Origin: a virus
Lineage: Duplodnaviria; Heunggongvirae; Uroviricota; Caudoviricetes
Reading direction: 5' to 3' (one strand)
DNA length: 60,485 nucleotides
IMG/VR virus record: IMGVR_UViG_2671181056_000013
Coordinates: 1 to 60,485 of that record
Made by a program: the position numbers and the translations under genes
In this document: piece by piece, positions 1 to 15,523 of the stretch
How the letters are laid out: the number at the start of each line of letters is the position of its first letter
Position numbering within the stretch: position 1 is the first letter of the stretch
The notes under the pieces: model-generated
What the model was told of the DNA's origin: nothing
Databases searched by the model: none
The model's input: only the letters and a program-made list of their open reading frames with translations

Positions 1-35
1 AAGCCACTGGAGCACCTCAAAAACACCATCATACA

Positions 36-497
36 CTAAATCAGTAAGTTGGCAGCATCACCGCCACTTTCCAGTTCTTCCACCCAGGCCTGCGGGACAC
101 TGAAATCGAGACGAAAAACCCCGATATCCCAGGTATAGCTCCCACCCTGAACAAGTTGCTCAAATGTTAAACATTGCTTACCGCTGGCGAAGTTATCGCT
201 ATTAATGCCTAACCGCTTGATAACTTCTCTTGATAAACATGTTTCTTGCGGGTTGTCTTTAACAATAATCTCATATTTCCCGCGCCATTGCTTATTGACA
301 TAAATATCGATGTCATACTGCCCCGGTAAGGGTTGATTATCATCAAGACGAATATTTGCAACCTGCTGGTCTTTCATTCCACCTATCATAAAATGGGTAT
401 CAAAGGTTTCTTCAGCTGCATAAGCTTCAATGCCGAGCAATAACGCTACGATTGCTGATGCAAGTGGGGTCATTCTCAACATAGGCAGCTCCTGCAA
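36..497 (-). CDS. yehB: fimbrial usher, N-terminal 153 codons only (signal peptide plus N-terminal domain); ORF stops 35 nt from window edge
   Basis: Translation has a signal peptide and usher N-terminal-domain-like sequence, and sits directly downstream of the chaperone gene as in chaperone-usher operons. A TAG at 36-38 ends it far short of a full usher. Confidence 0.5.
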   Translation of the reverse strand: MQELPMLRMTPLASAIVALLLGIEAYAAEETFDTHFMIGGMKDQQVANIRLDDNQPLPGQYDIDIYVNKQWRGKYEIIVKDNPQETCLSREVIKRLGINSDNFASGKQCLTFEQLVQGGSYTWDIGVFRLDFSVPQAWVEELESGGDAANLLI

Positions 498-1217
498 TTA
501 AATTTTGTCACTAATATAGTTGCCATGGTCATCGATAATGGTCAGATGCCAGTTATTTGCATTATTACTTTTGACATTAACACTCTGACTTTCTAAGGGG
601 GCAATCATAATAGTTTCATAATTGACTTTGACATTATTAGCTTTGACATCCGAGATCGTCACCCAATTAGCTGAGTCATTTTTTATCACCAAACCATTGC
701 CACTGCGATTTACCAGCAATTTTTTAAATGTCGCTTTATTTACCGGAGCAATACCCGCTGGTCGGTAAAACAACTTAATTCTGTTTTGCATCGCAAACTT
801 CAGTGCATTCTTACCTTCTTGCTCTGGACTATTTGGTGGAATATCCAGAACATTCAGATAAAAAATGCTTTCTTTATTAGTGGGCAGTTTATTCGGCATA
901 ATTTTGATTTTTACTTGCTGCCCGGAATTTGCCCCTATTTTTGCCACTGGTGGCGTTAACATGAAAGGAACCTGAATTTTTTCTGGTGGTAATGACGTAT
1001 CGCCATCATCAATCCACGCCTGCAGCAGCGAAGAACGGTTTCCCTGGTTCATCAACTGCACCATCACTTCTTTATTTTCTGCCGGGTAAATAATGCGCGT
1101 CCCGTAGATAACAATTCCGGCATGTGCAGGAAGGACCATAGAAAAAATGAGTAAAGATAATAATCCTTTCATTTTAATGCCTCTTAAATTAAAAGGCCGC
1201 CATGGGATAGCGGCCAT
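498..1217 (-). CDS. yehC: periplasmic fimbrial chaperone (PapD-like)
   Basis: 239 aa with signal peptide and a PapD/FimC-like N-terminal motif (GIVIYGTRIIYP); lies between subunit and usher genes. Confidence 0.85.
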   Translation of the reverse strand: MAAIPWRPFNLRGIKMKGLLSLLIFSMVLPAHAGIVIYGTRIIYPAENKEVMVQLMNQGNRSSLLQAWIDDGDTSLPPEKIQVPFMLTPPVAKIGANSGQQVKIKIMPNKLPTNKESIFYLNVLDIPPNSPEQEGKNALKFAMQNRIKLFYRPAGIAPVNKATFKKLLVNRSGNGLVIKNDSANWVTISDVKANNVKVNYETIMIAPLESQSVNVKSNNANNWHLTIIDDHGNYISDKI

Positions 1218-1251
1218 GTTTATTACCTGGAGAAACTTACAATTTTATTTA

Positions 1252-1794
1252 TTAATCCTGCGCCACACGCATAACCAGAGAAGATAACACATCACCTGAT
1301 TGCACTGAGTTATCTGTCAGTTTCAGGTATTTTGCTTTAAACGGAATAGCATATTGACCTTCCGCTGTTTTATAACTCTCAATGTTAAAAGGTGCAGAAA
1401 CATCCAGGACATCGCTGTTATCACCTAAATAGAGATAGTAACCCACGGTATCGTTGCTACTGGCTATCGCCTTATCGTTACCGGTTATTTTATCGTTGGT
1501 AATCAACGAGAGTTTTACACCAGCAACTTCTTTCGGGCAGCTAATTTTTAACATGCTGCTGGTTACACCGACTGCATCATCATAGGTAGAATATTTAGCT
1601 TTACCTTCAAAGACAGTGGTTGGTACAGTCGGCATATTAATACTTACTGAATCACCACCCGCTTCGAATTTACACGGAGATTCTGCAATATTCCCCTTAA
1701 TAGTTAATGTTCCGGTATCAACGTCTGCAGCAAATACTCCAGCGCTCATAAAAAAAGAAGAAAAGACAGCGGCAGCAATAATTGAACGTTTCAT
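1252..1794 (-). CDS. yehD: fimbrial major subunit
   Basis: 180 aa with signal peptide and fimbrillin-like sequence; first gene of the operon, AT-rich upstream region. Confidence 0.8.
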   Translation of the reverse strand: MKRSIIAAAVFSSFFMSAGVFAADVDTGTLTIKGNIAESPCKFEAGGDSVSINMPTVPTTVFEGKAKYSTYDDAVGVTSSMLKISCPKEVAGVKLSLITNDKITGNDKAIASSNDTVGYYLYLGDNSDVLDVSAPFNIESYKTAEGQYAIPFKAKYLKLTDNSVQSGDVLSSLVMRVAQD

Positions 1795-2035
1795 AATATG
1801 TTCCTTAATAAAATTTTTTTTGGTTGTTAAGAGTCTGTATCTCTTGGAAACAAATTTCTCACATCAAAAAAGTTACCGCAATGTAAACACATTGTTTTAT
1901 TTATTTGAAACAAATTAACCATTGCAATATAAATACAACAAATATTTAAGAGTATTAACTATTTATCGCATCTATCAATTAATGTAGATTTATGTAAATG
2001 GTATTGTTGATATCAATAAAAATCAGGTTGCCAAA

Positions 2036-2317
2036 TTAATCGTAGCGATTTAACACGATTCGACGTTTGCTATCGCTACCTGCAACAACCACTTCTGTCG
2101 TTACACCTTTGACGGGCGAAGAAAACAGATGACGGGTGTCAACATTATACGTTAACTGACCACAATGCGGTTGAGGTTGACCATTAACCATAGCCATACT
2201 GCATGTTGGGGGACTGATCCTGCCATTAATCGCTAATGTGGCAGTCTCTGAAGAGAATGCGGGAGAAGCCAATCCATAGGCAAGAAAAATAATTCCTGAC
2301 AGCCAATACTTATTCAT
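2036..2317 (-). CDS. yehE: small secreted protein, YehE-like
   Basis: 93 aa ORF with N-terminal signal peptide between the fimbrial operon and mrp, matching the E. coli gene order yehD-yehE-mrp-metG. Confidence 0.6.
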   Translation of the reverse strand: MNKYWLSGIIFLAYGLASPAFSSETATLAINGRISPPTCSMAMVNGQPQPHCGQLTYNVDTRHLFSSPVKGVTTEVVVAGSDSKRRIVLNRYD

Positions 2318-2561
2318 TGAAGGTTATGCCTGGATAGAATGAGTGCATAACAAACTATAGCTGTACATCCACTACACAGCCACGAAGGATGATAATGAAG
2401 CATTGCCTGTATGATCAATCGACTTTGTAGAGTTTCGGACGAAGGTCCGCAGAATATTCGCAGTATTAAATAAGTGTTCATTAATGCGGCAAAAACTAAT
2501 ACACCGCATCAATGTAACATCTCTGCGGTGTATGAAGAATAACCAGAATGGTTAATAGGCG

Positions 2562-3671
2562 TTAGACCGCGCGGAAGGAAATCTCGCCTGGAATGACTTC
2601 ACCCTGCCAGTAGAGCTGAGCTGCAACGCGGTCAGCCAGCTGGCGGTAGATAGCGGTAAATTCGCTCTCCGGACGGCTGATAACCGTTGGCGTGCCTTTA
2701 TCGAGATCCTCACGTAAGGAGATGTGTAACGGCATCTGCCCCAGCAGCTGTGTGTGGTATTTTTCAGCCAGTTTCTCTGCACCACCGGTACCGAAAATCG
2801 GTTCATGGTGACCACAGTTACTGCAAATATGCACACTCATGTTCTCGACAATACCAAGCACCGGAACCTCGACTTTCTCGAACATCACAATGCCTTTTTT
2901 CGCATCGATCAAAGCGATGTCCTGCGGGGTGGTGACCACGACTGCACCAGTTACTGGAATGTTTTGCGCCAGCGTCAATTGAATGTCACCGGTGCCTGGC
3001 GGCATATCAAGCACCAGATAGTCGAGATCCGGCCACAAGGTTTCCTGCAACATCTGCATTAACGCCTTGCTCGCCATCGGTCCACGCCACACCATCGCAT
3101 TGTCGTCAGTGACCAGATAACCAATTGAATTGGTTGCCAGGCCATGAGACATAATCGGTGCCATATGGGTACCGTCCGGCGAAGTTGGACGCTGATTTTC
3201 TGCGCCCAGCATGGTGGGAATTGATGGGCCGTAGATATCGGCGTCCAGAATGCCGACTTTCGCCCCTTCCGCCGCCAGTGCCAGCGCCAGGTTTACCGCC
3301 GTGGAGGATTTACCCACGCCGCCTTTACCGGAACTGACCGCAATGATGTTCTTCACACCATTAATACCCGGCTGATTCTTCACGCGTTTTAAGGTGGCGA
3401 TATTGTGCGACAGTTTCCAGTCGATAGCTTTCGCCCCGGTGATACGCAGCAGTTCGGCGCTACATTGCTCTTTTAACTCTTCAAACGCGCTATGCCAGAC
3501 GAATGGCATAACCAGTTCCACATGCAACGTGTCGTCCATCCAGGCGACATGGTGCAACGCGTTCAGCGTGGTGAGGTTATGCTTCAGGGTTGGGTGCTGA
3601 AAATTGGCCAGTGTCCCGGCGACCATTGCGCGCAAGGCTTCTGGTGATTTGGCCTGGGATTGTTCGTTCAT
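2562..3671 (-). CDS. mrp: Fe-S cluster carrier ATPase Mrp/ApbC, copy 1
   Basis: P-loop GKGGVGKS and CxxC motif. Start set at MNEQSQ (369 aa); the ORF track begins 10 codons further upstream. Confidence 0.9.
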   Translation of the reverse strand: MNEQSQAKSPEALRAMVAGTLANFQHPTLKHNLTTLNALHHVAWMDDTLHVELVMPFVWHSAFEELKEQCSAELLRITGAKAIDWKLSHNIATLKRVKNQPGINGVKNIIAVSSGKGGVGKSSTAVNLALALAAEGAKVGILDADIYGPSIPTMLGAENQRPTSPDGTHMAPIMSHGLATNSIGYLVTDDNAMVWRGPMASKALMQMLQETLWPDLDYLVLDMPPGTGDIQLTLAQNIPVTGAVVVTTPQDIALIDAKKGIVMFEKVEVPVLGIVENMSVHICSNCGHHEPIFGTGGAEKLAEKYHTQLLGQMPLHISLREDLDKGTPTVISRPESEFTAIYRQLADRVAAQLYWQGEVIPGEISFRAV

Positions 3672-3802
3672 CCCGACTCCTTTTTTGTATAGATAAACCA
3701 TCAGCTGATAGTTTACCTGAAGAATATAGAGAAGTACTTACTTAACATTTTCCCATTTGGTACTATCTAACCCCTTTTCACTATTAAGAAGTAATGCCTA
3801 CT

Positions 3803-5221
3803 ATGACTCAAGTCGCGAAGAAAATTCTGGTGACGTGCGCACTGCCGTACGCTAACGGCTCAATCCACCTCGGCCATATGCTGGAGCACATCCAGGCTGA
3901 TGTCTGGGTCCGTTACCAGCGAATGCGCGGCCACGAGGTCAACTTCATCTGCGCCGACGATGCCCACGGTACACCGATCATGCTGAAAGCTCAGCAGCTT
4001 GGTATCACCCCGGAGCAGATGATTGGCGAAATGAGTCAGGAGCATCAGACTGATTTCGCAGGCTTTAACATCAGCTATGACAACTATCACTCGACGCACA
4101 GCGAAGAGAACCGCCAGTTGTCAGAACTTATCTACTCTCGCCTGAAAGAGAACGGTTTTATTAAAAACCGCACCATCTCTCAGCTGTACGATCCGGAAAA
4201 AGGCATGTTCCTGCCGGACCGTTTTGTGAAAGGCACCTGCCCGAAATGTAAATCCCCGGATCAATACGGCGATAACTGCGAAGTCTGCGGCGCGACCTAC
4301 AGCCCGACTGAATTGATCGAGCCGAAATCGGTGGTTTCTGGCGCTACGCCGGTAATGCGTGATTCTGAACACTTCTTCTTTGATCTGCCCTCTTTCAGCG
4401 AAATGTTGCAGGCATGGACCCGCAGCGGTGCGTTGCAGGAGCAGGTGGCAAATAAAATGCAGGAGTGGTTTGAATCCGGCCTGCAACAGTGGGATATCTC
4501 CCGCGACGCGCCATACTTTGGTTTTGAAATTCCGAACGCGCCGGGCAAATATTTCTACGTCTGGCTGGACGCACCGATTGGCTACATGGGTTCTTTCAAG
4601 AATCTGTGCGACAAGCGCAGCGACAGCGTAAGCTTCGATGAATACTGGAAGAAAGACTCCACCGCCGAGCTGTACCACTTCATCGGTAAAGATATTGTTT
4701 ACTTCCACAGCCTGTTCTGGCCTGCCATGCTGGAAGGCAGCAACTTCCGCAAGCCGACCAACCTGTTTGTTCATGGCTATGTGACGGTGAACGGCGCAAA
4801 GATGTCCAAGTCTCGCGGCACCTTTATTAAAGCCAGCACCTGGCTGAATCATTTTGACGCTGACAGCCTGCGTTACTACTACACTGCGAAACTCTCTTCG
4901 CGCATTGATGATATCGATCTCAACCTGGAGGATTTCGTTCAGCGTGTGAATGCCGATATCGTGAACAAAGTGGTTAACCTGGCCTCTCGTAATGCGGGCT
5001 TTATCAACAAGCGTTTTGACGGCGTGCTGGCAAGCGAACTGGCTGACCCGCAGTTGTACAAAACCTTCACTGATGCCGCTGAAGTGATTGGTGAAGCGTG
5101 GGAAAGCCGCGAATTTGGTAAAGCAGTGCGCGAAATCATGGCGCTGGCTGATCTGGCTAACCGCTATGTCGAAGTGGCCTTAAACAATTTGTTTTCTACC
5201 TTTTCTTGTTCGAGAAAATAA
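3803..5221 (+). pseudogene. metG: metG 5' portion (about 456 codons) fused in frame to phage-like sequence, ending after 16 unrelated codons
   Basis: Class I aaRS motif HLGH and KMSKS are present. MetG-like sequence stops at 5172/5173 where the full copy continues ...RYVDEQAPW; here it reads ...[19 protein letters not shown]. Confidence 0.8.
5183..5220 (+). promoter_or_regulatory. about 40-bp phage promoter-like element, copy 1 of 3 (AAACAATTTGTTTTCTACCTTTT...GAGAAAATAA)
   Basis: A 23-nt stretch is identical to 12203-12225 and near-identical to 16091-16113; possible -35 TTGTTT and -10 GAAAAT/GATAAT. Confidence 0.4.
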
Positions 5222-5253
5222 CGTTCCTTTGTCTGGTGCTATGTACCGATCAG

Positions 5254-5300
5254 TTGCACTGAGTGAGCTTCTTTCATGTATACTGTGTAAATGAACAGTA
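5254..5300 (+). promoter_or_regulatory. sigma70-like promoter (TTGCAC ... TATACT) overlapped by a LexA/SOS box TACTGTGTAAATGAACAGTA
   Basis: CTGT-N8-ACAG palindrome at 5281-5300, matching the LexA consensus at 16 of 20 positions by my alignment, about 17 nt upstream of the umuD'-like start. Confidence 0.65.
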
Positions 5301-5316
5301 TTGAGGGCAAAACGCT

Positions 5317-5706
5317 ATGGGCTTCCCTTCTCCTGCGGCGGATTATGCTGAGAGCCGTATTTCTCTTGATCAGCAGATAATTAGACATCCTTCAGCGACC
5401 TACTTCATGAGAGCAGCTGATAGTCATCATCGTGAGGGAATATTACAGGGTGCATTGCTGGTGGTTGATTCCTCACTTACCCCGGTTGATGGTTCTCTGC
5501 TTGTATGCGCTCTGGATGGGGAATATCGCGTAAAAAGATACCGGAAGTCTCCACGTCAGCATCTGGAGGATTTAAGAACCGGTAAGAAGGAAGCATTGCC
5601 AAAGGATGACGATGGATGCACGGGCAGCAATGCCGTGTTTGGTGTGATCACTCACATTATCAACGACGCAAGAAGTGGCGAGTTTGATGATTGTCCTGTG
5701 ATGTAG
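5317..5706 (+). CDS. UmuD'-like S24 peptidase-family protein, natively starting at the position equivalent to UmuD Gly25
   Basis: MGFPSPAADY...HPSATYF...VFGVITHII aligns with E. coli UmuD from the Cys24/Gly25 cleavage site onward. Good RBS GAGGG; in-frame TGA at 5302-5304 excludes a longer N-terminus. Confidence 0.8.
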   Translation: MGFPSPAADYAESRISLDQQIIRHPSATYFMRAADSHHREGILQGALLVVDSSLTPVDGSLLVCALDGEYRVKRYRKSPRQHLEDLRTGKKEALPKDDDGCTGSNAVFGVITHIINDARSGEFDDCPVM

Positions 5707-5718
5707 GAGAACTGATTA

Positions 5719-5745
5719 GGCGGTGCAATGCACCGCCTTTTTATC
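5719..5745 (+). terminator. intrinsic terminator (GGCGGTGCA-A-TGCACCGCC plus T-run)
   Basis: Perfect 9-bp stem followed by TTTTT, placed between the convergent umuD'-like gene and mrp copy B. Confidence 0.6.
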
Positions 5746-6844
5746 ACACTGCGCGGAATGCGATTTCGCCAGGTATTACTTCACCTTGCCAATACATTTG
5801 GGCAGCAACGCGATCTGCGAGGTCACGATAAATAGCCGTAAATTCGCTATCTGGACGACTAATAACGGTTGGTGTTCCGTTATCCAGATCTTCACGAAGA
5901 GAGATATGAAGTGGCATTTGGCCTAACAACTGCGTGTTGTATTTCTCGGCCAGTTTCTGTGCTCCACCGGTGCCAAAAATTGGCTCGTGATGACCGCAGT
6001 TACTGCAAATATGCACACTCATGTTTTCAACGATACCCAGTACCGGCACTTCGACTTTTTCGAACATCACAATGCCTTTCTTCGCATCGATCAGCGCGAT
6101 GTCTTGCGGCGTAGTTACCACAACCGCACCAGTTACAGGAATGTTCTGCGCCAGCGTCAATTGAATATCACCAGTGCCCGGTGGCATATCGAGAACGAGA
6201 TAGTCCAGATCAGGCCACAGTGTTTCCTGCAACATCTGCATCAGCGCCTTGCTCGCCATCGGTCCACGCCACACCATTGCATTGTCATCGGTGACCAGAT
6301 AACCAATAGAGTTGGTTGCCAGGCCATGAGACATGATAGGTGCCATGTGAGTACCGTCCGGTGAGGTTGGACGTTGGTTTTCCGCGCCCAGCATGGTTGG
6401 AATTGATGGACCATAGATATCGGCATCCAAAATACCAACTTTCGCACCTTCAGCAGCCAAAGCCAGTGCCAAGTTTACTGCTGTGGAGGATTTACCCACG
6501 CCGCCCTTGCCTGAGCTGACGGCGATAATGTTCTTAACGCCATTAATGCCTGGTTGGTTTTTGACGCGCTTAAGCGTGGCAATGTTGTACGACAGCTTCC
6601 AGTCAATAGCCTTTGCGCCAGTGATACGGAGCAGATCACCACTACATTGCTCTTTCAGGTCTTCAAAAGGCTTATTCCACACGAAAGGCATGATTAGTTC
6701 GACATGCAGTGTGTCATCCATCAACGCAACATGGTGTAACGCTTTAAGCGTAGTCAAGTTGTGTTTCAGGGTTGGGTGCTGAAAATTAGCCAGCGTACCG
6801 GCTACCATTGCTCTCAGGGCATCCGGCGATTTGGACTCGCTCAT
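5744..6844 (-). CDS. mrp: Mrp/ApbC, divergent copy B
   Basis: 366 aa with the same motifs as copy 1, but many synonymous and some non-synonymous differences; its flanking non-coding DNA is unrelated to copy 1. Confidence 0.85.
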   Translation of the reverse strand: MSESKSPDALRAMVAGTLANFQHPTLKHNLTTLKALHHVALMDDTLHVELIMPFVWNKPFEDLKEQCSGDLLRITGAKAIDWKLSYNIATLKRVKNQPGINGVKNIIAVSSGKGGVGKSSTAVNLALALAAEGAKVGILDADIYGPSIPTMLGAENQRPTSPDGTHMAPIMSHGLATNSIGYLVTDDNAMVWRGPMASKALMQMLQETLWPDLDYLVLDMPPGTGDIQLTLAQNIPVTGAVVVTTPQDIALIDAKKGIVMFEKVEVPVLGIVENMSVHICSNCGHHEPIFGTGGAQKLAEKYNTQLLGQMPLHISLREDLDNGTPTVISRPDSEFTAIYRDLADRVAAQMYWQGEVIPGEIAFRAV

Positions 6845-7001
6845 CCCGTCTCCTTTATTTTAATTTGCGCAATTGTCGCCTTGTAGTGTACTCCAGCTAC
6901 GACATTTAATCATTTATGAGAAATGCTGTTATCACATGGCAGACATAAGGCCATTTTGTTACTATCAAGCCCCTTTTCACTACAAAGAAGTAATGCCTAC
7001 T

Positions 7002-8837
7002 ATGACCCAAGTCGCGAAGAAAATTCTGGTGACGTGCGCGCTGCCGTACGCTAACGGCTCAATCCACCTCGGCCATATGCTGGAGCACATCCAGGCTGAT
7101 GTCTGGGTTCGTTACCAGCGAATGCGCGGCCACGAGGTTAATTTCATCTGTGCCGACGATGCCCACGGTACGCCAATCATGCTGAAAGCACAGCAGCTTG
7201 GTATCACACCGGAACAGATGATTGGCGAAATGAGTCAGGAACATCAGACTGATTTCGCAGGCTTTAACATCAGCTATGACAACTATCACTCGACGCACAG
7301 CGAAGAGAACCGTCAGTTGTCCGAGCTTATCTACTCTCGCCTGAAAGAAAACGGTTTTATTAAAAACCGCACCATCTCACAGCTGTACGATCCGGAAAAA
7401 TGCATGTTCCTGCCGGACCGTTTTGTAAAAGGCACCTGCCCGAAATGTAAATCCCCGGATCAATACGGCGATAACTGCGAAGTCTGCGGCGCGACCTACA
7501 GCCCGACTGAACTGATCGAGCCGAAATCGGTGGTTTCTGGCGCTACGCCGGTAATGCGTGATTCTGAACACTTCTTCTTTGATCTGCCCTCTTTCAGCGA
7601 AATGTTGCAGGCATGGACCCGCAGCGGTGCGTTGCAGGAGCAGGTGGCAAATAAAATGCAGGAGTGGTTTGAATCCGGCCTGCAACAGTGGGATATCTCC
7701 CGCGACGCGCCATACTTTGGTTTTGAAATTCCGAACGCGCCGGGCAAATATTTCTACGTCTGGCTGGACGCACCGATTGGCTACATGGGTTCTTTCAAGA
7801 ATCTGTGCGACAAGCGCAGCGACAGCGTAAGCTTCGATGAATACTGGAAGAAAGACTCCACCGCCGAGCTGTACCACTTCATCGGTAAAGATATTGTTTA
7901 CTTCCACAGCCTGTTCTGGCCTGCCATGCTGGAAGGCAGCAACTTCCGCAAGCCGACCAACCTGTTTGTTCATGGCTATGTGACGGTGAACGGCGCAAAG
8001 ATGTCCAAGTCTCGCGGCACCTTTATTAAAGCCAGCACCTGGCTGAATCATTTTGACGCTGACAGCCTGCGTTACTACTACACTGCGAAACTCTCTTCGC
8101 GCATTGATGATATCGATCTCAACCTGGAGGATTTCGTTCAGCGTGTGAATGCCGATATCGTGAACAAAGTGGTTAACCTGGCCTCTCGTAATGCGGGCTT
8201 TATCAACAAGCGTTTTGACGGCGTGCTGGCAAGCGAACTGGCTGACCCGCAGTTGTACAAAACCTTCACTGATGCCGCTGAAGTGATTGGTGAAGCGTGG
8301 GAAAGCCGCGAATTTGGTAAAGCAGTGCGCGAAATCATGGCGCTGGCTGATCTGGCTAACCGCTATGTCGACGAGCAGGCTCCGTGGGTGGTGGCAAAAC
8401 AGGAAGGCCGCGATGCCGACCTGCAGGCAATTTGCTCAATGGGCATAAACCTGTTCCGCGTGCTGATGACTTACCTGAAGCCGGTACTGCCGAAACTGAC
8501 CGAGCGCGCAGAAGCATTCCTCAATACAGAACTGACCTGGGATGGTATCCAGCAACCGCTGCTGGGCCACAAAGTGAATCCGTTCAAAGCGCTGTATAAC
8601 CGCATCGATATGAAGCAGGTTGAAGCACTGGTGGAAGCGTCTAAAGAAGAAGTGAAAGCAGCTGCCGCGCCAGTTACTGGCCCACTGGCAGATGATCCGA
8701 TTCAGGAAACCATCACCTTTGACGACTTCGCAAAAGTTGACCTGCGCGTGGCGCTGATCGAAAACGCAGAGTTTGTTGAAGGTTCTGACAAACTGCTGCG
8801 CCTGATGCGGTGTATGAAGAATAACCAGAATGGTTAA
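7002..8837 (+). CDS. metG: methionyl-tRNA synthetase copy B, truncated after about codon 601 and read through into 10 junction codons
   Basis: Near-identical to the other metG copies except scattered SNPs. Junction at 8805/8806 joins metG to sequence equal to 2524 onward. The ORF-track N-terminal extension (6873-6992) is treated as artefact. Confidence 0.8.
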
Positions 8838-8843
8838 TAGGCG

Positions 8844-9953
8844 TTAGACCGCGCGGAAGGAAATCTCGCCTGGAATGACTTCACCCTGCCAGTAGAGCTG
8901 AGCTGCAACGCGGTCAGCCAGCTGGCGGTAGATAGCGGTAAATTCGCTCTCCGGACGGCTGATAACCGTTGGCGTGCCTTTATCGAGATCCTCACGTAAG
9001 GAGATGTGTAACGGCATCTGCCCCAGCAGCTGTGTGTGGTATTTTTCAGCCAGTTTCTCTGCACCACCGGTACCGAAAATCGGTTCATGGTGACCACAGT
9101 TACTGCAAATATGCACACTCATGTTCTCGACAATACCAAGCACCGGAACCTCGACTTTCTCGAACATCACAATGCCTTTTTTCGCATCGATCAAAGCGAT
9201 GTCCTGCGGGGTGGTGACCACGACTGCACCAGTTACTGGAATGTTTTGCGCCAGCGTCAATTGAATGTCACCGGTGCCTGGCGGCATATCAAGCACCAGA
9301 TAGTCGAGATCCGGCCACAAGGTTTCCTGCAACATCTGCATTAACGCCTTGCTCGCCATCGGTCCACGCCACACCATCGCATTGTCGTCAGTGACCAGAT
9401 AACCAATTGAATTGGTTGCCAGGCCATGAGACATAATCGGTGCCATATGGGTACCGTCCGGCGAAGTTGGACGCTGATTTTCTGCGCCCAGCATGGTGGG
9501 AATTGATGGGCCGTAGATATCGGCGTCCAGAATGCCGACTTTCGCCCCTTCCGCCGCCAGTGCCAGCGCCAGGTTTACCGCCGTGGAGGATTTACCCACG
9601 CCGCCTTTACCGGAACTGACCGCAATGATGTTCTTCACACCATTAATACCCGGCTGATTCTTCACGCGTTTTAAGGTGGCGATATTGTGCGACAGTTTCC
9701 AGTCGATAGCTTTCGCCCCGGTGATACGCAGCAGTTCGGCGCTACATTGCTCTTTTAACTCTTCAAACGCGCTATGCCAGACGAATGGCATAACCAGTTC
9801 CACATGCAACGTGTCGTCCATCCAGGCGACATGGTGCAACGCGTTCAGCGTGGTGAGGTTATGCTTCAGGGTTGGGTGCTGAAAATTGGCCAGTGTCCCG
9901 GCGACCATTGCGCGCAAGGCTTCTGGTGATTTGGCCTGGGATTGTTCGTTCAT
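8844..9953 (-). CDS. mrp: Mrp/ApbC, copy 2 (identical to copy 1)
   Basis: Translation is identical to 2562-3701; the DNA repeat runs from 8806, offset 6282 from copy 1. Confidence 0.9.
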   Translation of the reverse strand: MNEQSQAKSPEALRAMVAGTLANFQHPTLKHNLTTLNALHHVAWMDDTLHVELVMPFVWHSAFEELKEQCSAELLRITGAKAIDWKLSHNIATLKRVKNQPGINGVKNIIAVSSGKGGVGKSSTAVNLALALAAEGAKVGILDADIYGPSIPTMLGAENQRPTSPDGTHMAPIMSHGLATNSIGYLVTDDNAMVWRGPMASKALMQMLQETLWPDLDYLVLDMPPGTGDIQLTLAQNIPVTGAVVVTTPQDIALIDAKKGIVMFEKVEVPVLGIVENMSVHICSNCGHHEPIFGTGGAEKLAEKYHTQLLGQMPLHISLREDLDKGTPTVISRPESEFTAIYRQLADRVAAQLYWQGEVIPGEISFRAV

Positions 9954-10084
9954 CCCGACTCCTTTTTTGTATAGATAAACCATCAGCTGATAGTTTACCT
10001 GAAGAATATAGAGAAGTACTTACTTAACATTTTCCCATTTGGTACTATCTAACCCCTTTTCACTATTAAGAAGTAATGCCTACT

Positions 10085-12118
10085 ATGACTCAAGTCGCGA
10101 AGAAAATTCTGGTGACGTGCGCACTGCCGTACGCTAACGGCTCAATCCACCTCGGCCATATGCTGGAGCACATCCAGGCTGATGTCTGGGTCCGTTACCA
10201 GCGAATGCGCGGCCACGAGGTCAACTTCATCTGCGCCGACGATGCCCACGGTACACCGATCATGCTGAAAGCTCAGCAGCTTGGTATCACCCCGGAGCAG
10301 ATGATTGGCGAAATGAGTCAGGAGCATCAGACTGATTTCGCAGGCTTTAACATCAGCTATGACAACTATCACTCGACGCACAGCGAAGAGAACCGCCAGT
10401 TGTCAGAACTTATCTACTCTCGCCTGAAAGAGAACGGTTTTATTAAAAACCGCACCATCTCTCAGCTGTACGATCCGGAAAAAGGCATGTTCCTGCCGGA
10501 CCGTTTTGTGAAAGGCACCTGCCCGAAATGTAAATCCCCGGATCAATACGGCGATAACTGCGAAGTCTGCGGCGCGACCTACAGCCCGACTGAATTGATC
10601 GAGCCGAAATCGGTGGTTTCTGGCGCTACGCCGGTAATGCGTGATTCTGAACACTTCTTCTTTGATCTGCCCTCTTTCAGCGAAATGTTGCAGGCATGGA
10701 CCCGCAGCGGTGCGTTGCAGGAGCAGGTGGCAAATAAAATGCAGGAGTGGTTTGAATCCGGCCTGCAACAGTGGGATATCTCCCGCGACGCGCCATACTT
10801 TGGTTTTGAAATTCCGAACGCGCCGGGCAAATATTTCTACGTCTGGCTGGACGCACCGATTGGCTACATGGGTTCTTTCAAGAATCTGTGCGACAAGCGC
10901 AGCGACAGCGTAAGCTTCGATGAATACTGGAAGAAAGACTCCACCGCCGAGCTGTACCACTTCATCGGTAAAGATATTGTTTACTTCCACAGCCTGTTCT
11001 GGCCTGCCATGCTGGAAGGCAGCAACTTCCGCAAGCCGACCAACCTGTTTGTTCATGGCTATGTGACGGTGAACGGCGCAAAGATGTCCAAGTCTCGCGG
11101 CACCTTTATTAAAGCCAGCACCTGGCTGAATCATTTTGACGCTGACAGCCTGCGTTACTACTACACTGCGAAACTCTCTTCGCGCATTGATGATATCGAT
11201 CTCAACCTGGAGGATTTCGTTCAGCGTGTGAATGCCGATATCGTGAACAAAGTGGTTAACCTGGCCTCTCGTAATGCGGGCTTTATCAACAAGCGTTTTG
11301 ACGGCGTGCTGACAAGCGAACTGGCTGACCCGCAACTGTACAAAACCTTTACTGATGCCGCTGAAGTGATTGGCGAAGCATGGGAAAGCCGCGAATTTGG
11401 TAAAGCTATCCGTGAAATCATGGCATTGGCTGACCTGGCTAATCGCTATGTCGATGAACAGGCTCCGTGGGTGGTGGCGAAGCAGGAAGGTCGCGATGCA
11501 GATCTGCAGGCGATTTGCTCTATGGGCATTAACCTGTTCCGCGTGCTGATGACGTACCTGAAACCGGTACTGCCGAAACTGACTGAACGTGCAGAAGCAT
11601 TCCTGAATACAGAACTGACCTGGGATGGTATCCAGCAACCGCTTCTGGGCCATAAAGTGAATCCGTTCAAGGCACTGTATAACCGTATCGATATGAAACA
11701 GGTGGAAGCACTGGTGGAAGCATCCAAAGAAGAAGTGAAAGCCACAGCTGCACCGGTAACTGGCCCACTGGCTGACGAACCGATTCAGGAAACCATCACC
11801 TTTGACGACTTCGCCAAAGTTGACCTGCGTGTGGCGCTGATTGAAAACGCGGAGTTTGTCGAAGGTTCTGACAAACTGCTTCGCCTGACGCTGGATCTCG
11901 GTGGTGAAAAGCGTAATGTCTTCTCAGGCATCCGTTCCGCTTATCCAGATCCACAGGCACTGATTGGTCGTCACACCATTATGGTGGCTAACCTGGCACC
12001 ACGTAAAATGCGCTTCGGTATCTCTGAAGGCATGGTGATGGCTGCCGGTCCTGGCGGGAAAGATATCTTCCTGTTAAGCCCGGATGCTGGTGCTAAACCT
12101 GGCCACCAGGTTAAGTAA
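10085..12118 (+). CDS. metG: methionyl-tRNA synthetase, full length (677 aa)
   Basis: Complete ORF including the C-terminal tRNA-binding domain. The 3' third differs at many sites from copies 1 and B. Confidence 0.9.
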
Positions 12119-12140
12119 TTAAACAACCTCTCTTCGCAAT

Positions 12141-12166
12141 GCCCGGCAACACGCCGGGCATTTTCA
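12141..12166 (+). terminator. intrinsic terminator of metG (GCCCGGC-AACAC-GCCGGGC plus T-run)
   Basis: 7-bp GC stem followed by ATTTTC, 23 nt after the metG stop. Confidence 0.7.
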
Positions 12167-12201
12167 TATAGACACAATCCCTCCTGATTTACACAAGCCC
12201 T

Positions 12202-12240
12202 AAAACAATTTGTTTTCTACCTTTTGTTGATTGAGATAAT
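12202..12240 (+). promoter_or_regulatory. about 40-bp phage promoter-like element, copy 2 of 3; apparent left edge of the phage region
   Basis: Same 23-mer as at 5183; sits between the metG terminator and the first phage-like gene. Confidence 0.4.
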
Positions 12241-12279
12241 AAGCCACATAAGAAAACAACTTGTTTTGGAGTAGTTGAA

Positions 12280-12579
12280 ATGTTGAACATTACCCAAGCC
12301 TACCAGGTGGCATTGATCAGTTCATCTCATACATCAGAGGAAGATGCTCGCCGATTCATGATCGCAAGCAATGAGCTGGATTGGGTTTCACAAATTGAGT
12401 ACGGTTGCATTGTCCACGCCGGGTTACAGGACGATGACTGGAAAGATGAGTTGCGTCGATATGGTATATCCGAGGGTGCGATTGCGAACATTCAGAAAGT
12501 ACTTGATGTAGGCTTTAACTCTGTACATTTTGATTGTGGCGCACCGGTCGTTGAAGGGCTTGAGTGCTGGCAATGGTAA
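12280..12579 (+). CDS. hypothetical early protein (99 aa)
   Basis: ORF with GGAG RBS, preceded by the GAAAACAAnTTGTTTTC palindrome. Confidence 0.55.
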   Translation: MLNITQAYQVALISSSHTSEEDARRFMIASNELDWVSQIEYGCIVHAGLQDDDWKDELRRYGISEGAIANIQKVLDVGFNSVHFDCGAPVVEGLECWQW

Positions 12580-12615
12580 TCCGGCAATCGCTTCATACTA
12601 GATAACGGAGAATTT

Positions 12616-12801
12616 ATGCTTAAAGAAGACTCATATCTACTAAAGGCGCTTGAAATGAGTGGCGTTGAACCTACAGTGAAAAACGCTCACGATATCTACC
12701 TTCAGTTTTCGACAGAGCTGAAACAGCTCATAAATAAATATGGAGTGAACGACTCCAGCGTCAAAGCCATGATAGATGATGAATTAGACCATCTCATCTA
12801 A
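12616..12801 (+). CDS. hypothetical small protein (61 aa)
   Basis: ORF with RBS-like GGAGAA upstream. Confidence 0.45.
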   Translation: MLKEDSYLLKALEMSGVEPTVKNAHDIYLQFSTELKQLINKYGVNDSSVKAMIDDELDHLI

Positions 12802-12899
12802 TCAAACCGTTGATAATGGCGGTCACAATTTGATTCTTTTCTATAAGAACCCGTTGATCGCCACTACTACCCTCCCATACCAGCAATCACATCATTAAA

Positions 12900-13700
12900 T
12901 ATCAATAGGTTATGGTTGTTTATACCAATAAGAAAACAACTAAATAACAGATCAACGAAACATCAACGCTTTCTCCCGATTTGGTCTAAAAAATTGACGT
13001 TATCACACATCACTTCTTATACCCGTAATTCTACGCAGCAGATAGCGCCACAGCGTCCAAATTTCACCACAGACGACTCAACACACTACCAACAAAAACA
13101 CACGCTCAAAATCGCTCCCGTTGCGTTACACAACCATATAAACAACTTATTTTCAGGCATAACAAAACAACCAAATAACACATATGCCATTACCCAAAAC
13201 AACCAACCTCTTTATGGCAGGCTACCGAAAAGACCCACCTCTTCTCCCCAGGCTACCGGACAACCAACCTAACTTTCACAGGCAATCCGAAAACATTCAT
13301 ACGCGCGATACCCACGACACGCCATTACCCAAACAGCGAAGAAACACCTGAACCGCTGAAACCCTAACGAAGCCTGTAACCGCAAGGTTTCTCTCAATCC
13401 CAAAAGACACGAAACATAACAATCACGGGAAACGCCATTACCCAATACACGAATAACTACAAAAGCCTTCACACACTCCAGACAAACAACTCAAACACAA
13501 TAACGAAAGCAATCGCCCACCTGCCATTACTCCATACACGGAGAAGAACAATCACCAAAACGACGAGAACACCCCCATAGAAGAACCACCGCAAAACTAA
13601 CGAAACCACATACACCGACAGAGAAAACAACACACCCAATTCACCAACAGAAATAGTCGCCGTATAGAACATTCTGGAAGGAGTGAGCATTAACGCCTAT
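12900..13700. repeat. G-poor, CA-rich non-coding tract with dispersed GCCATTACCCA and CAGGCTACCG...CCCACCT repeats
   Basis: Top strand is almost devoid of G for about 800 bp. Four GCCATTAC(C/T)C copies near 13186, 13321, 13433, 13523; two CAGGCTACCG copies at 13217-13273. The only ORF translates to low-complexity sequence. Confidence 0.6.
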
Positions 13701-13854
13701 AGAGAGGTTGAGACAGATAAAACACAACATGTATAGCGAAGAAGCCAGGTATGTATAAGTGGAGAGGGAAGGAGGGGGGTCGCCTCCTTTTTCGTATTTA
13801 TTCAACTCCTGATTTTATCCCCCGTAACACCCCCTACGGTCAGCCTTCGGTCCA

Positions 13855-13992
13855 TACAGGGAAAAGGTTGCATCCAGCTACAGAAACGGCTGGGTTGCCT
13901 TCGGGGGAACGGCTGGGGATTTTCAGGGAAACGGTCGAGTTGCCTGTGTGGATTTCGGGAAAAGGCTCGATGCCGGTTCTGGAACGGCGGCG
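13855..13992. repeat. iteron-like direct repeats (GGGAAAMGG family, about 6 copies at 21-32 bp spacing), set 1
   Basis: CAGGGAAAAGG, CAGAAACGGC, CGGGGGAACGGC, CAGGGAAACGG, TCGGGAAAAGGC, CTGGAACGGCGG in series; no convincing ORF. Confidence 0.55.
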
Positions 13993-14370
13993 TACCGGTA
14001 TAGCGAGAGAGAGAGTTGCAGCTACCCACCTGTAATGTGCGGGAAGAAGAGAGGCGCTCACGTGCAGGCTGACTTGCTTACCGCTGGATTCCCTCTGAAT
14101 GCCAGATACAGCGTAATTGTGCCAGACAGCCAGCGGGTCACAATCGATTTCAGTAGGTTTTCGGGGAGAGGATTATTCTACCCACCAGCCCCGCGGCGCG
14201 CGTAGAGCAGAATATCGTAAATACTGGCTCTCGTGTCGTTCCCGGATATTCACTGCCCAGCCTGGCTTTCCCGACATAAAATCCTTTTTCGCCTTTATCT
14301 TATTGCGATAATAACACCAACAAGTAAACAGCATATTTAGACGTTATAGAAACGAAGTGAGGATGAAGAG

Positions 14371-14589
14371 ATGATTAAGATGCCTGTGACGGTTGAGGTG
14401 TGGGGCGTGGATTCCCTGGCTGAGTGTCTGGATGCAGTGGGGCCGGAGTTGTACCGCAAGTTGTGGTCGTTCGTCCCGGCAGAAGGGGAATCGCCCAAAG
14501 GGAAGGATATCTGGCACCTGCTGAGTGAAGATGAAAAGCGGGAGCTGGTGGGCGCGGTACACAGCGAGTTCCCGGACGACCAAGATTAA
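14371..14589 (+). CDS. hypothetical acidic small protein (72 aa)
   Basis: ORF with GAGGA RBS, followed by a terminator. Confidence 0.5.
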   Translation: MIKMPVTVEVWGVDSLAECLDAVGPELYRKLWSFVPAEGESPKGKDIWHLLSEDEKRELVGAVHSEFPDDQD

Positions 14590-14595
14590 GAGTGA

Positions 14596-14618
14596 GGCCA
14601 CCAGCACGGTGGCTTTTG
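14596..14618 (+). terminator. intrinsic terminator (GCCACC-AGCAC-GGTGGC plus TTTT)
   Basis: Hairpin plus T-run immediately after the stop at 14589. Confidence 0.6.
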
Positions 14619-14727
14619 TCGCTATTAACCTCGGGGCAGCGCAGCACCGTAACGATATACTTTGTGGCCGTTTTCTTACTGGTATTGTTTACGTAATTCA
14701 GAAAACAACATGTTTAAGGATTGCTTT

Positions 14728-15211: not shown

Positions 15212-15523
15212 ATGAAAAAATCATTGGTTCTTGGTCTGGACAAAGACCAGAAGAGAAAAGAGAAGCCTGCACTGGTTGCTCAATTAACTTTGCTGGACAT
15301 CGTTGCCAATGGAACCTCTATTCGTCTGTTCCGTGAAACAGCGGTGTCTTTCGATAAAAACACCTTTACTCGTTATGTAATGAATGTTCGTCGCCAGCGT
15401 GGAAAAGGCTGGATGGCATTTCAAAGAATGTGGCCGGAACATCAGCTCGAACTGGCTTTGATGGAAGTTAACCGCGTGGCCCAGCAAGAGATTCAGAGAG
15501 CATCAGTGATGGCAATAGCCTGA
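15212..15523 (+). CDS. hypothetical early protein (about 104 aa)
   Basis: ATG after a GGAG RBS; the 55-bp upstream block is shared with the 14660-14715 region. Confidence 0.55.
   Translation: MKKSLVLGLDKDQKRKEKPALVAQLTLLDIVANGTSIRLFRETAVSFDKNTFTRYVMNVRRQRGKGWMAFQRMWPEHQLELALMEVNRVAQQEIQRASVMAIA

Follow-up and report, generated by a model that had tools for sequence, protein, structure and literature searches.

The gene at positions 5317–5706 of the window, the 60,485-nt stretch of viral DNA analyzed here, is humD, an SOS gene of the P1 type; the copy is an ordinary one, and the gene is already known. We consider, with a probability of about 87%, that it is a phage or phage-plasmid umuD that is translated directly as activated UmuD΄ and serves the host Pol V. 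A preliminary description of this DNA, made from its letters alone, had called the gene an orphan. Instead, it belongs to a named and experimentally characterized family, and the NCBI models in current use name it correctly. The same description had offered a UmuD΄ mimic as one possible function of the product, and this reading matches the known biology of P1 HumD. The coding sequence and the signals around it are listed in Table 1.

Table 1. Features of the humD locus, in window coordinates
Feature	Position	Strand	Remarks
Candidate –35 (weak), TTGCAC / TGCACT	5254–5260	+	8/12 hexamer matches together with TATACT
Candidate –10, TATACT	5279–5284	+	5/6 match to TATAAT; overlapped by the LexA box
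LexA (SOS) box, TACTGTGTAAATGAACAGTA	5281–5300	+	Ends 16 nt before the ATG; assigned by a sequence criterion
In-frame stop, TGA	5302–5304	+	Four codons 5΄ of the ATG; frame reads ...NEQY*GQNAMGFPS (5170–5331 translated)
Shine–Dalgarno sequence, GAGGG	5303–5307	+	9 nt before the ATG; read from the sequence; GAGG in P1
humD coding sequence, 129 aa plus stop codon	5317–5706	+	ATG start; natively truncated UmuD΄ homologue
Acidic C-terminal tail, RSGEFDDCPVM, codons 119–129	5671–5703	+	No UmuD΄ counterpart
Intrinsic terminator	5718–5743	+	Stem of 9 bp with 7 GC pairs (5718–5738), 3-nt loop, T-run

The identity of the protein was examined using profile, sequence and structure comparisons. The NCBIfam equivalog model NF051876, 'HumD family translesion DNA polymerase', was matched with 218.7 bits against a cut-off of 120, and residues 1–129 of the protein were aligned to positions 1–129 of the 129-position profile. 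The Peptidase_S24 profile search that had been proposed as a check gave 38.1 bits against a gathering score of 23.3 (Pfam PF00717). In PHROGs, the protein matched phrog_811, 'UmuD-like' (E = 6e-54), and its best sequence match in the PDB was UmuD΄ (1umu, E = 5e-23). The model of the canonical UmuD subfamily (NCBIfam NF007621/PRK10276) gave 87.8 bits, which is under its cut-off of 110; the window protein differs from canonical UmuD not only in this score but also in lacking the N-terminal 24 residues and a downstream umuC. When phage genomes were searched using tblastn, the protein exhibited 90.7–91.5% identity to HumD of phage P1 and 64–72% identity to N15 gp26, phiKO2 Gp23 and the 'UmuD-like protein' of HK639. 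From position 5174 on, the DNA is 100% identical to SSU5-like phage-plasmids of ~110 kb from E. coli O104:H4, and for the gene on these plasmids RefSeq uses the names 'S24 family peptidase' and 'HumD family translesion DNA polymerase'. The family is large, comprising 562 proteins at E ≤ 1e-5 in a 90%-clustered database, many of which are named HumD. An AF2 model built from a diverse alignment of 65 sequences reached a pLDDT of 75.6; its best PDB match was UmuD΄ (TM 0.77), and the next matches were the C-terminal domains of LexA and lambda CI. An earlier AlphaFold model computed from 31 close homologues (pLDDT 49.5) was too poor for use.

The alignment with UmuD΄ confirmed that the protein begins where activated UmuD΄ begins, as the preliminary description had proposed for a pre-cleaved product of 129 aa. 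HumD Gly2 pairs with the first residue of the UmuD΄ chain in 1umu and with residue 25 of full-length UmuD (8gmt_B), and G25, S60 and K97 of UmuD map to G2, S36 and K73 of HumD. Because the protein starts at the Gly of the cleavage site, it has no scissile bond, and it contains no internal Ala/Cys-Gly self-cleavage site. The start MGFP is common to all homologues aligned. We also looked for an upstream in-frame start that could yield a full-length UmuD; the TGA listed in Table 1 closes the frame, and a second in-frame stop lies farther 5΄ of it. Because these in-frame stops precede the ATG, a longer protein is not possible, in agreement with the original reading.

Conservation relative to UmuD΄ is unevenly distributed along the protein, with identities of 64% for residues 2–43, 44% for residues 44–75, 12% for residues 76–105 and 46% for residues 106–118. 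In residues 34–38, ADSHH replaces the GDSM of UmuD, just as had been read from the translation. The C-terminal third had been described as divergent. This holds for residues 76–105, which differ from UmuD΄ and include a 4-residue insertion and a low-confidence loop (residues 98–104), and for residues 119–129, which extend the protein by 11 residues that UmuD΄ lacks; however, residues 106–118 form the last β-strand and are conserved.

We analyzed the region upstream of the initiation codon for promoter and operator sequences. A strict sigma-70 scan of positions 5100–5850 called no promoter, and in a looser hexamer count over positions 5180–5316 the best pairs were TGCACT-18 nt-TATACT and TTGCAC-19 nt-TATACT, each with 8 of 12 matches. 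Because the –35 hexamer is weak and the strict scan was empty, the promoter ahead of humD is regarded as a plausible candidate only, as judged from its hexamers. Accordingly, of the earlier statement that an SOS box overlaps the –10 of a promoter, the overlap between the box and TATACT stands, and the promoter itself is reduced to a candidate with a weak –35.

A search with the 20-mer palindromic LexA consensus at ≤3 mismatches returned no match. The humD box has four mismatches to this consensus, all in its variable center, and was missed for this reason; core-pattern searches were therefore used in place of the 20-mer. The pattern CTGT-N8-ACAG occurs at two sites in the 60-kb window against 0.79 expected, and the site other than the humD box, at position 15326, lies within a gene annotated in the reference plasmid. 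The longer pattern TACTGT-N8-ACAGTA has a single site in the window, namely the humD box, with 0.07 sites expected at ≤1 mismatch. An exact CTGT-N8-ACAG is also located about 15–60 nt 5΄ of the M-G-F-P start in P1, N15, phiKO2, HK639 and Hafnia phage yong1, and a homologue in an Aeromonas phage has a box with one mismatch at the same place. Downstream of the stop codon, the RNA fold calculation gave –18.6 kcal/mol for the terminator hairpin (z = –5.2; 0 of 200 shuffled sequences folded equally well), and together with the T-run that follows, this hairpin upholds the claim that the gene has a terminator of its own. No matches were obtained when the whole window was scanned for tRNAs and against Rfam.

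No umuC is adjacent to humD, as had been noted: the neighbors are a convergent apbC on one side and, upstream, a junction to chromosomal metG. This junction (5173/5174) is abrupt and lies 143 bp upstream of humD. Positions 1–5173 of the window are E. coli chromosome (yehB-E, apbC and nt 1–1371 of metG), and positions 5174–8805 are phage-plasmid DNA carrying humD, a plasmid apbC (83% nt identity to the host apbC) and a metG copy. Chromosomal apbC–metG appears again at positions 8806–12119, with positions 2524–5029 100% identical to positions 8806–11311, and from there on the window runs collinear with the phage-plasmid. The three copies of metG have a mosaic make-up: the first is of the chromosomal type, the second has a 5΄ end of the plasmid type and a 3΄ part of the chromosomal type, and the third has a 5΄ end of the chromosomal type and a 3΄ part of the plasmid type. 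This pattern would fit recombination between the metG genes of the element and the host, together with a junction of the tandem-duplication type (metG nt 1804 joined to the downstream flank of apbC). Both junctions (5173/5174 and 8805/8806) were absent from complete RefSeq E. coli genomes and from PLSDB plasmids, and junction 5173/5174 had no exact match in GTDB representative genomes. The arrangement may be either a real integration or a misassembly. It has no effect on humD, whose promoter–operator region is identical to the plasmid form.

A polymerase partner for HumD was sought within the element. The large open reading frames of the window encode a helicase, terminase, portal, capsid and tail proteins, a DnaB-like helicase and the apbC and metG copies; none of them encodes a Y-family polymerase (IMS), and ~50 kb of this copy of the element lies beyond the window. 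In the complete reference phage-plasmid NZ_CP022085.2, no umuC-like gene was found among the 131 annotated features, although the plasmid encodes its own RecA, DnaE, ligase, NrdAB and thymidylate synthase. Thus a umuC elsewhere in the element, which would have made this an ordinary umuDC fragment, was found in neither set. HumD would have to work with the host UmuC, as in P1.

The proposed mechanism would operate as follows. In an undamaged cell, host LexA bound to the box overlapping the –10 would hold humD off, and upon DNA damage, RecA*-induced cleavage of LexA would derepress it. A HumD dimer, like UmuD΄2, would then combine with host UmuC and RecA-ATP, giving a translesion polymerase of the Pol V type. 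The slow RecA*-mediated conversion of UmuD to UmuD΄, which is the usual delay on mutagenic bypass, would in this way be bypassed, and an element devoid of a polymerase gene would thereby provide itself and its host with damage tolerance and mutagenesis. Dimerization, binding to UmuC and RecA and complementation of UmuD΄ are here inferred from the ~91% identity to P1 HumD and from what has been published on that protein. The activity of HumD may nevertheless differ from that of UmuD΄, because the conserved tail of the family is absent from UmuD΄. The 12% identity in residues 76–105, the weak –35 and the poor expression reported for P1 HumD also count against the proposed mechanism.

We also compared the residues of the protease dyad across the family. 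The window HumD, like P1 HumD, retains both dyad residues (S36 and K73). Of the 32 full-length UmuD-like proteins in the 65-sequence alignment, 27 have the Ser and 28 the Lys. Among the 33 natively truncated relatives, the position of Ser60 is occupied by S, T, A, H, Y or Q; no more than 13 of them have the Ser, and 16 have the Lys. Among the aligned HumD homologues, S, T, Y or Q is found at the Ser60 position and K, M or R at that of Lys97. These frequencies suggest that constraint on the Ser/Lys dyad has been lost in the natively truncated clade, and such decay is expected once self-cleavage has become obsolete. This point may be new.

The C-terminal tail, ending in ...NDARSGEFDDCPVM, is the most conserved stretch of the HumD family. 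E122, D124 and P127 do not vary among 31 family members, in which F123, D125, C126 and V128 reach at least 90% conservation, and the tail is retained in homologues with only 44–48% overall identity. Its pLDDT of about 51 predicts that it is poorly ordered. We surveyed 150 representatives obtained by searching 1.84 billion proteins exhaustively. Every protein with the tail was a natively truncated form; none of the 43 full-length UmuD-like representatives had it, and some truncated forms lack it. The consensus E-[FW]-D-D-x-P-[VC]-[MIL]-COOH resembles the C-terminal tip of E. coli SSB, DFDDDIPF (PMC3936761): both the SSB tip and the HumD end EFDDCPVM have [DE]-F-D-D at positions –8 to –5 from the C-terminus, followed by a Pro and a hydrophobic end, and some family variants end in -EFDDTPF or -EFHDNLPF. 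However, the Pro of HumD is shifted by one position relative to the SSB tip, the last residue is usually M, I or L rather than F, and the tail directly follows the folded S24 domain, unlike that of SSB, which is preceded by a long disordered linker.

That the HumD tail is a functional mimic of the SSB tip is suggested by this resemblance of pattern, and we regard it as a tentative and rather unlikely proposal. If it were true, HumD would be more than a pre-cleaved UmuD΄: the HumD2–UmuC polymerase could dock on the SSB-interaction network or on the OB-fold of SSB, or compete with it, and a functional tail would add an extra mechanistic layer to the recruitment of Pol V. Nothing relevant to HumD was found when the literature was searched for phage proteins that mimic the SSB tail. 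The presence of an SSB-tip-like tail in many, not all, members of the truncated clade may also be a new point.

We considered whether HumD might mainly modulate or antagonize the host system, rather than act as a productive subunit of Pol V. It could form heterodimers with host UmuD or UmuD΄, titrate UmuC or RecA*, or compete through its tail at SSB-binding sites; this would alter when the UmuD2C checkpoint acts and when mutagenesis sets in, in favor of replication of the element. The divergence of residues 76–105 is in keeping with such a role, as are the conservation of a family-specific tail and its confinement to natively truncated forms, the recA and dnaE genes of the reference element, and the situation in phiKO2, where a single LexA box is shared between the humD homologue and a divergent dinI homologue. 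However, complementation of UmuD΄ is both annotated and cited for the P1 orthologue, and the N-terminal two thirds of the protein are 44–64% identical to UmuD΄. We therefore judge a mainly modulatory role to be improbable, while modulation and complementation can coexist and are not mutually exclusive.

Two further explanations were given far less weight. The preliminary description had also raised an SOS-induced antirepressor-type factor; such a protein, of the 186 Tum or N15 AntC type, would link LexA cleavage to induction of the phage-plasmid, and at the level of the promoter the layout agrees with this, humD being small, standing alone and following a LexA box in a temperate element. However, the Pfam, NCBIfam and PHROG matches are all to UmuD/S24 and the fold matches UmuD΄, the immunity systems of phages that carry humD (P1, N15 and the lambdoid HK639) are unrelated, and N15-related phage-plasmids have separate families of SOS-dependent antirepressor genes (PMC7969092). 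The suggestion thus found no support, and we regard it as very improbable. We assign almost no probability to a functionless, decaying umuDC fragment truncated at its 5΄ end, as the missing umuC and the degenerate protease motif (ADSHH instead of GDSM) might have indicated. The dN/dS ratio relative to P1 humD, 0.06 at a dS of 0.77, is a sign of strong purifying selection and rules out a fragment in decay. The M-G-F-P start is also exactly kept across many phages, together with a Shine–Dalgarno sequence, LexA box and terminator of its own, and the size of the family likewise argues against decay.

A directly translated UmuD΄ in the service of host Pol V, the reading that we prefer, has implications beyond this element. 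The LexA-controlled humD cassette is common to SSU5-like phage-plasmids, P1, N15 and several lambdoid phages, so that temperate elements would widely borrow the host UmuC by means of a ready-activated accessory subunit. This would matter for SOS mutagenesis in clinical E. coli and Shigella harboring such elements and, through it, for how resistance evolves in them.

The closest known system is phage P1. P1 HumD (AAQ14181) has the same length (129 aa), M-G-F-P start, ADSHH sequence and C-terminal tail as the window HumD, with ~91% amino acid identity. Neither P1 nor the element analyzed here has a cognate umuC, and both carriers are phage-plasmids, although the carrier here is an SSU5/pHCM2-like phage-plasmid of ~110 kb and not P1. 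P1 HumD reportedly forms dimers and binds UmuC and RecA filaments; it is also said to be poorly expressed, full complementation having needed a high copy number. In the GenBank record of P1 (AF234173), humD carries the note 'DNA repair; functionally complements E. coli UmuD΄', and the site homologous to the box in the window is labelled 'LexA binding site in the regulatory region of lxr and humD'. In PMC7092418, P1 HumD is likewise treated as an already activated, shorter UmuD that complements UmuD΄. The LexA boxes of the two humD genes differ at a single nucleotide, and the –10 is nearer to the consensus in the window (TATACT) than in P1 (TGTACT). The DNA homology between P1 and the window extends only from about the –35 region, where TTGCAC is kept in P1, to the stop codon, and the conserved mobile unit is therefore the promoter, the operator and the open reading frame. 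The surroundings differ accordingly: in P1, humD is flanked by the divergent lxr and, downstream, by phd-doc, whereas in the SSU5-like element a toprim-domain gene lies upstream (in the reference plasmid) and the convergent apbC downstream. LexA control, truncation at the equivalent of Gly25 and the lack of a cognate umuC, as the preliminary description had them for the window gene, make up the published definition of HumD.

Among more distant relatives, N15 gp26, phiKO2 Gp23 and the HK639 protein share with HumD the truncated start, the LexA box, the tail and a stand-alone gene with its own terminator. However, all three have Thr at the position of the catalytic Ser, and the HK639 protein has Met at that of the Lys, unlike the window HumD. 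To our knowledge, the plasmid- and ICE-encoded proteins MucA, RumA, ImpA and SamA are full-length, need cleavage and always have their own polymerase gene (mucB, rumB etc.) next to them. HumD lacks both of these features of the MucA type, that is, the full-length pro-form and the polymerase gene of its own downstream. MucA, RumA, ImpA and SamA have in common with HumD that they are S24 accessory subunits of mobile elements, SOS-regulated and serving Pol V-type polymerases (PMC7092418). UmuD΄ itself (PDB 1umu, 1ay9 and 1i4v) has the same S24 fold and the same first residue as HumD, with about 44% identity over residues 2–118; however, UmuD΄ arises by RecA*-mediated autocleavage, whereas HumD, whose gene lies outside any umuC operon, arises directly by translation.

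The S24 Ser/Lys catalytic dyad was compared between natively truncated relatives of HumD and full-length UmuD-like proteins in two alignments (A3 and A5). In the truncated group its conservation is poor, the Ser being retained in at most 13 of 33 proteins and the Lys in 16 of 33; in the full-length group it is good (Ser, 27/32; Lys, 28/32). As judged from these alignments, the proteolytic function seems to be eroding in proteins that no longer require cleavage. HumD also carries an acidic C-terminal tail, EFDDCPVM, which is highly conserved, family-specific and similar to the C-terminal tip of SSB (DFDDDIPF). This tail was restricted to the natively truncated UmuD' homologues and was found in none of 43 full-length forms.

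Features of humD and its surroundings
Feature	Position in HumD	Window coordinates	Other coordinates or description
S24 Ser/Lys catalytic dyad region	residues 35-38 and K73	5419-5430 and 5533-5535	
Acidic C-terminal tail EFDDCPVM	residues 119-129	5671-5703	
Phage-plasmid apbC/mrp and metG		5744-8805	12571-15862 in L001 (SSU5-like phage-plasmid)
Chimeric junctions		5173/5174 and 8805/8806	
metG copy types			chromosomal type; 5' plasmid-type and 3' chromosomal-type; 5' chromosomal-type and 3' plasmid-type

Adjoining humD on the SSU5-like phage-plasmid are element-borne versions of two housekeeping genes of the host. The phage-plasmid's apbC/mrp shares ~83% nucleotide identity with the E. coli gene, and its metG, which is full-length, shares ~97%. 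About 190 plasmids from E. coli, Shigella and Salmonella have kept this layout. In the window, apbC-metG occurs three times (2524-12119), in the chimeric order chromosome, phage-plasmid, chromosome and phage-plasmid; the metG copies are mosaics, and positions 8806-11311 are 100% identical to positions 2524-5029. Such an arrangement fits recombination via the host-derived metG of the element, accompanied by a duplication-type junction, and it also fits misassembly. Neither junction was present in the RefSeq complete E. coli genomes or in PLSDB, and an exact-match search of GTDB representatives with the 5173/5174 junction returned none.

Downstream of metG, a stretch of ~2.5 kb (about 12120-14660) contains no ORF of at least 120 aa, and Rfam and tRNA scans yielded no matches within it; the counterpart in the reference plasmid holds just two very small annotated CDSs and a 1.5-kb gap in the annotation. 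A second CTGT-N8-ACAG match in the window (15326-15341, CTGTTCCGTGAAACAG) lacks TA flanks, falls within a gene annotated in the reference plasmid and is probably a chance occurrence. This plasmid (NZ_CP022085.2, positions 77900-109945) further encodes RecA, DnaE (Pol III alpha), a 5'-3' exonuclease, NrdAB, thymidylate synthase and DfrA51, all in a region that the window does not reach. A RecA supplied by the element itself may be relevant alongside HumD, which requires RecA for Pol V activation.

Comparison of the SSU5-like element with phage P1 revealed DNA similarity extending from the -35 hexamer to the stop codon (window 5254-5706; P1, L002 2935-3390), whereas the flanks are unrelated, P1 humD being preceded by lxr and followed by phd-doc. 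Because the similarity is limited to this segment and the surroundings differ, the promoter, operator and ORF act as a self-contained exchangeable cassette. In phage phiKO2 (L004 1181-1884), an annotated LexA site is common to the humD homologue and a dinI homologue transcribed divergently from it. The DinI protein inhibits RecA*-mediated UmuD cleavage, and its pairing with a pre-cleaved UmuD' in phiKO2 is therefore suggestive.
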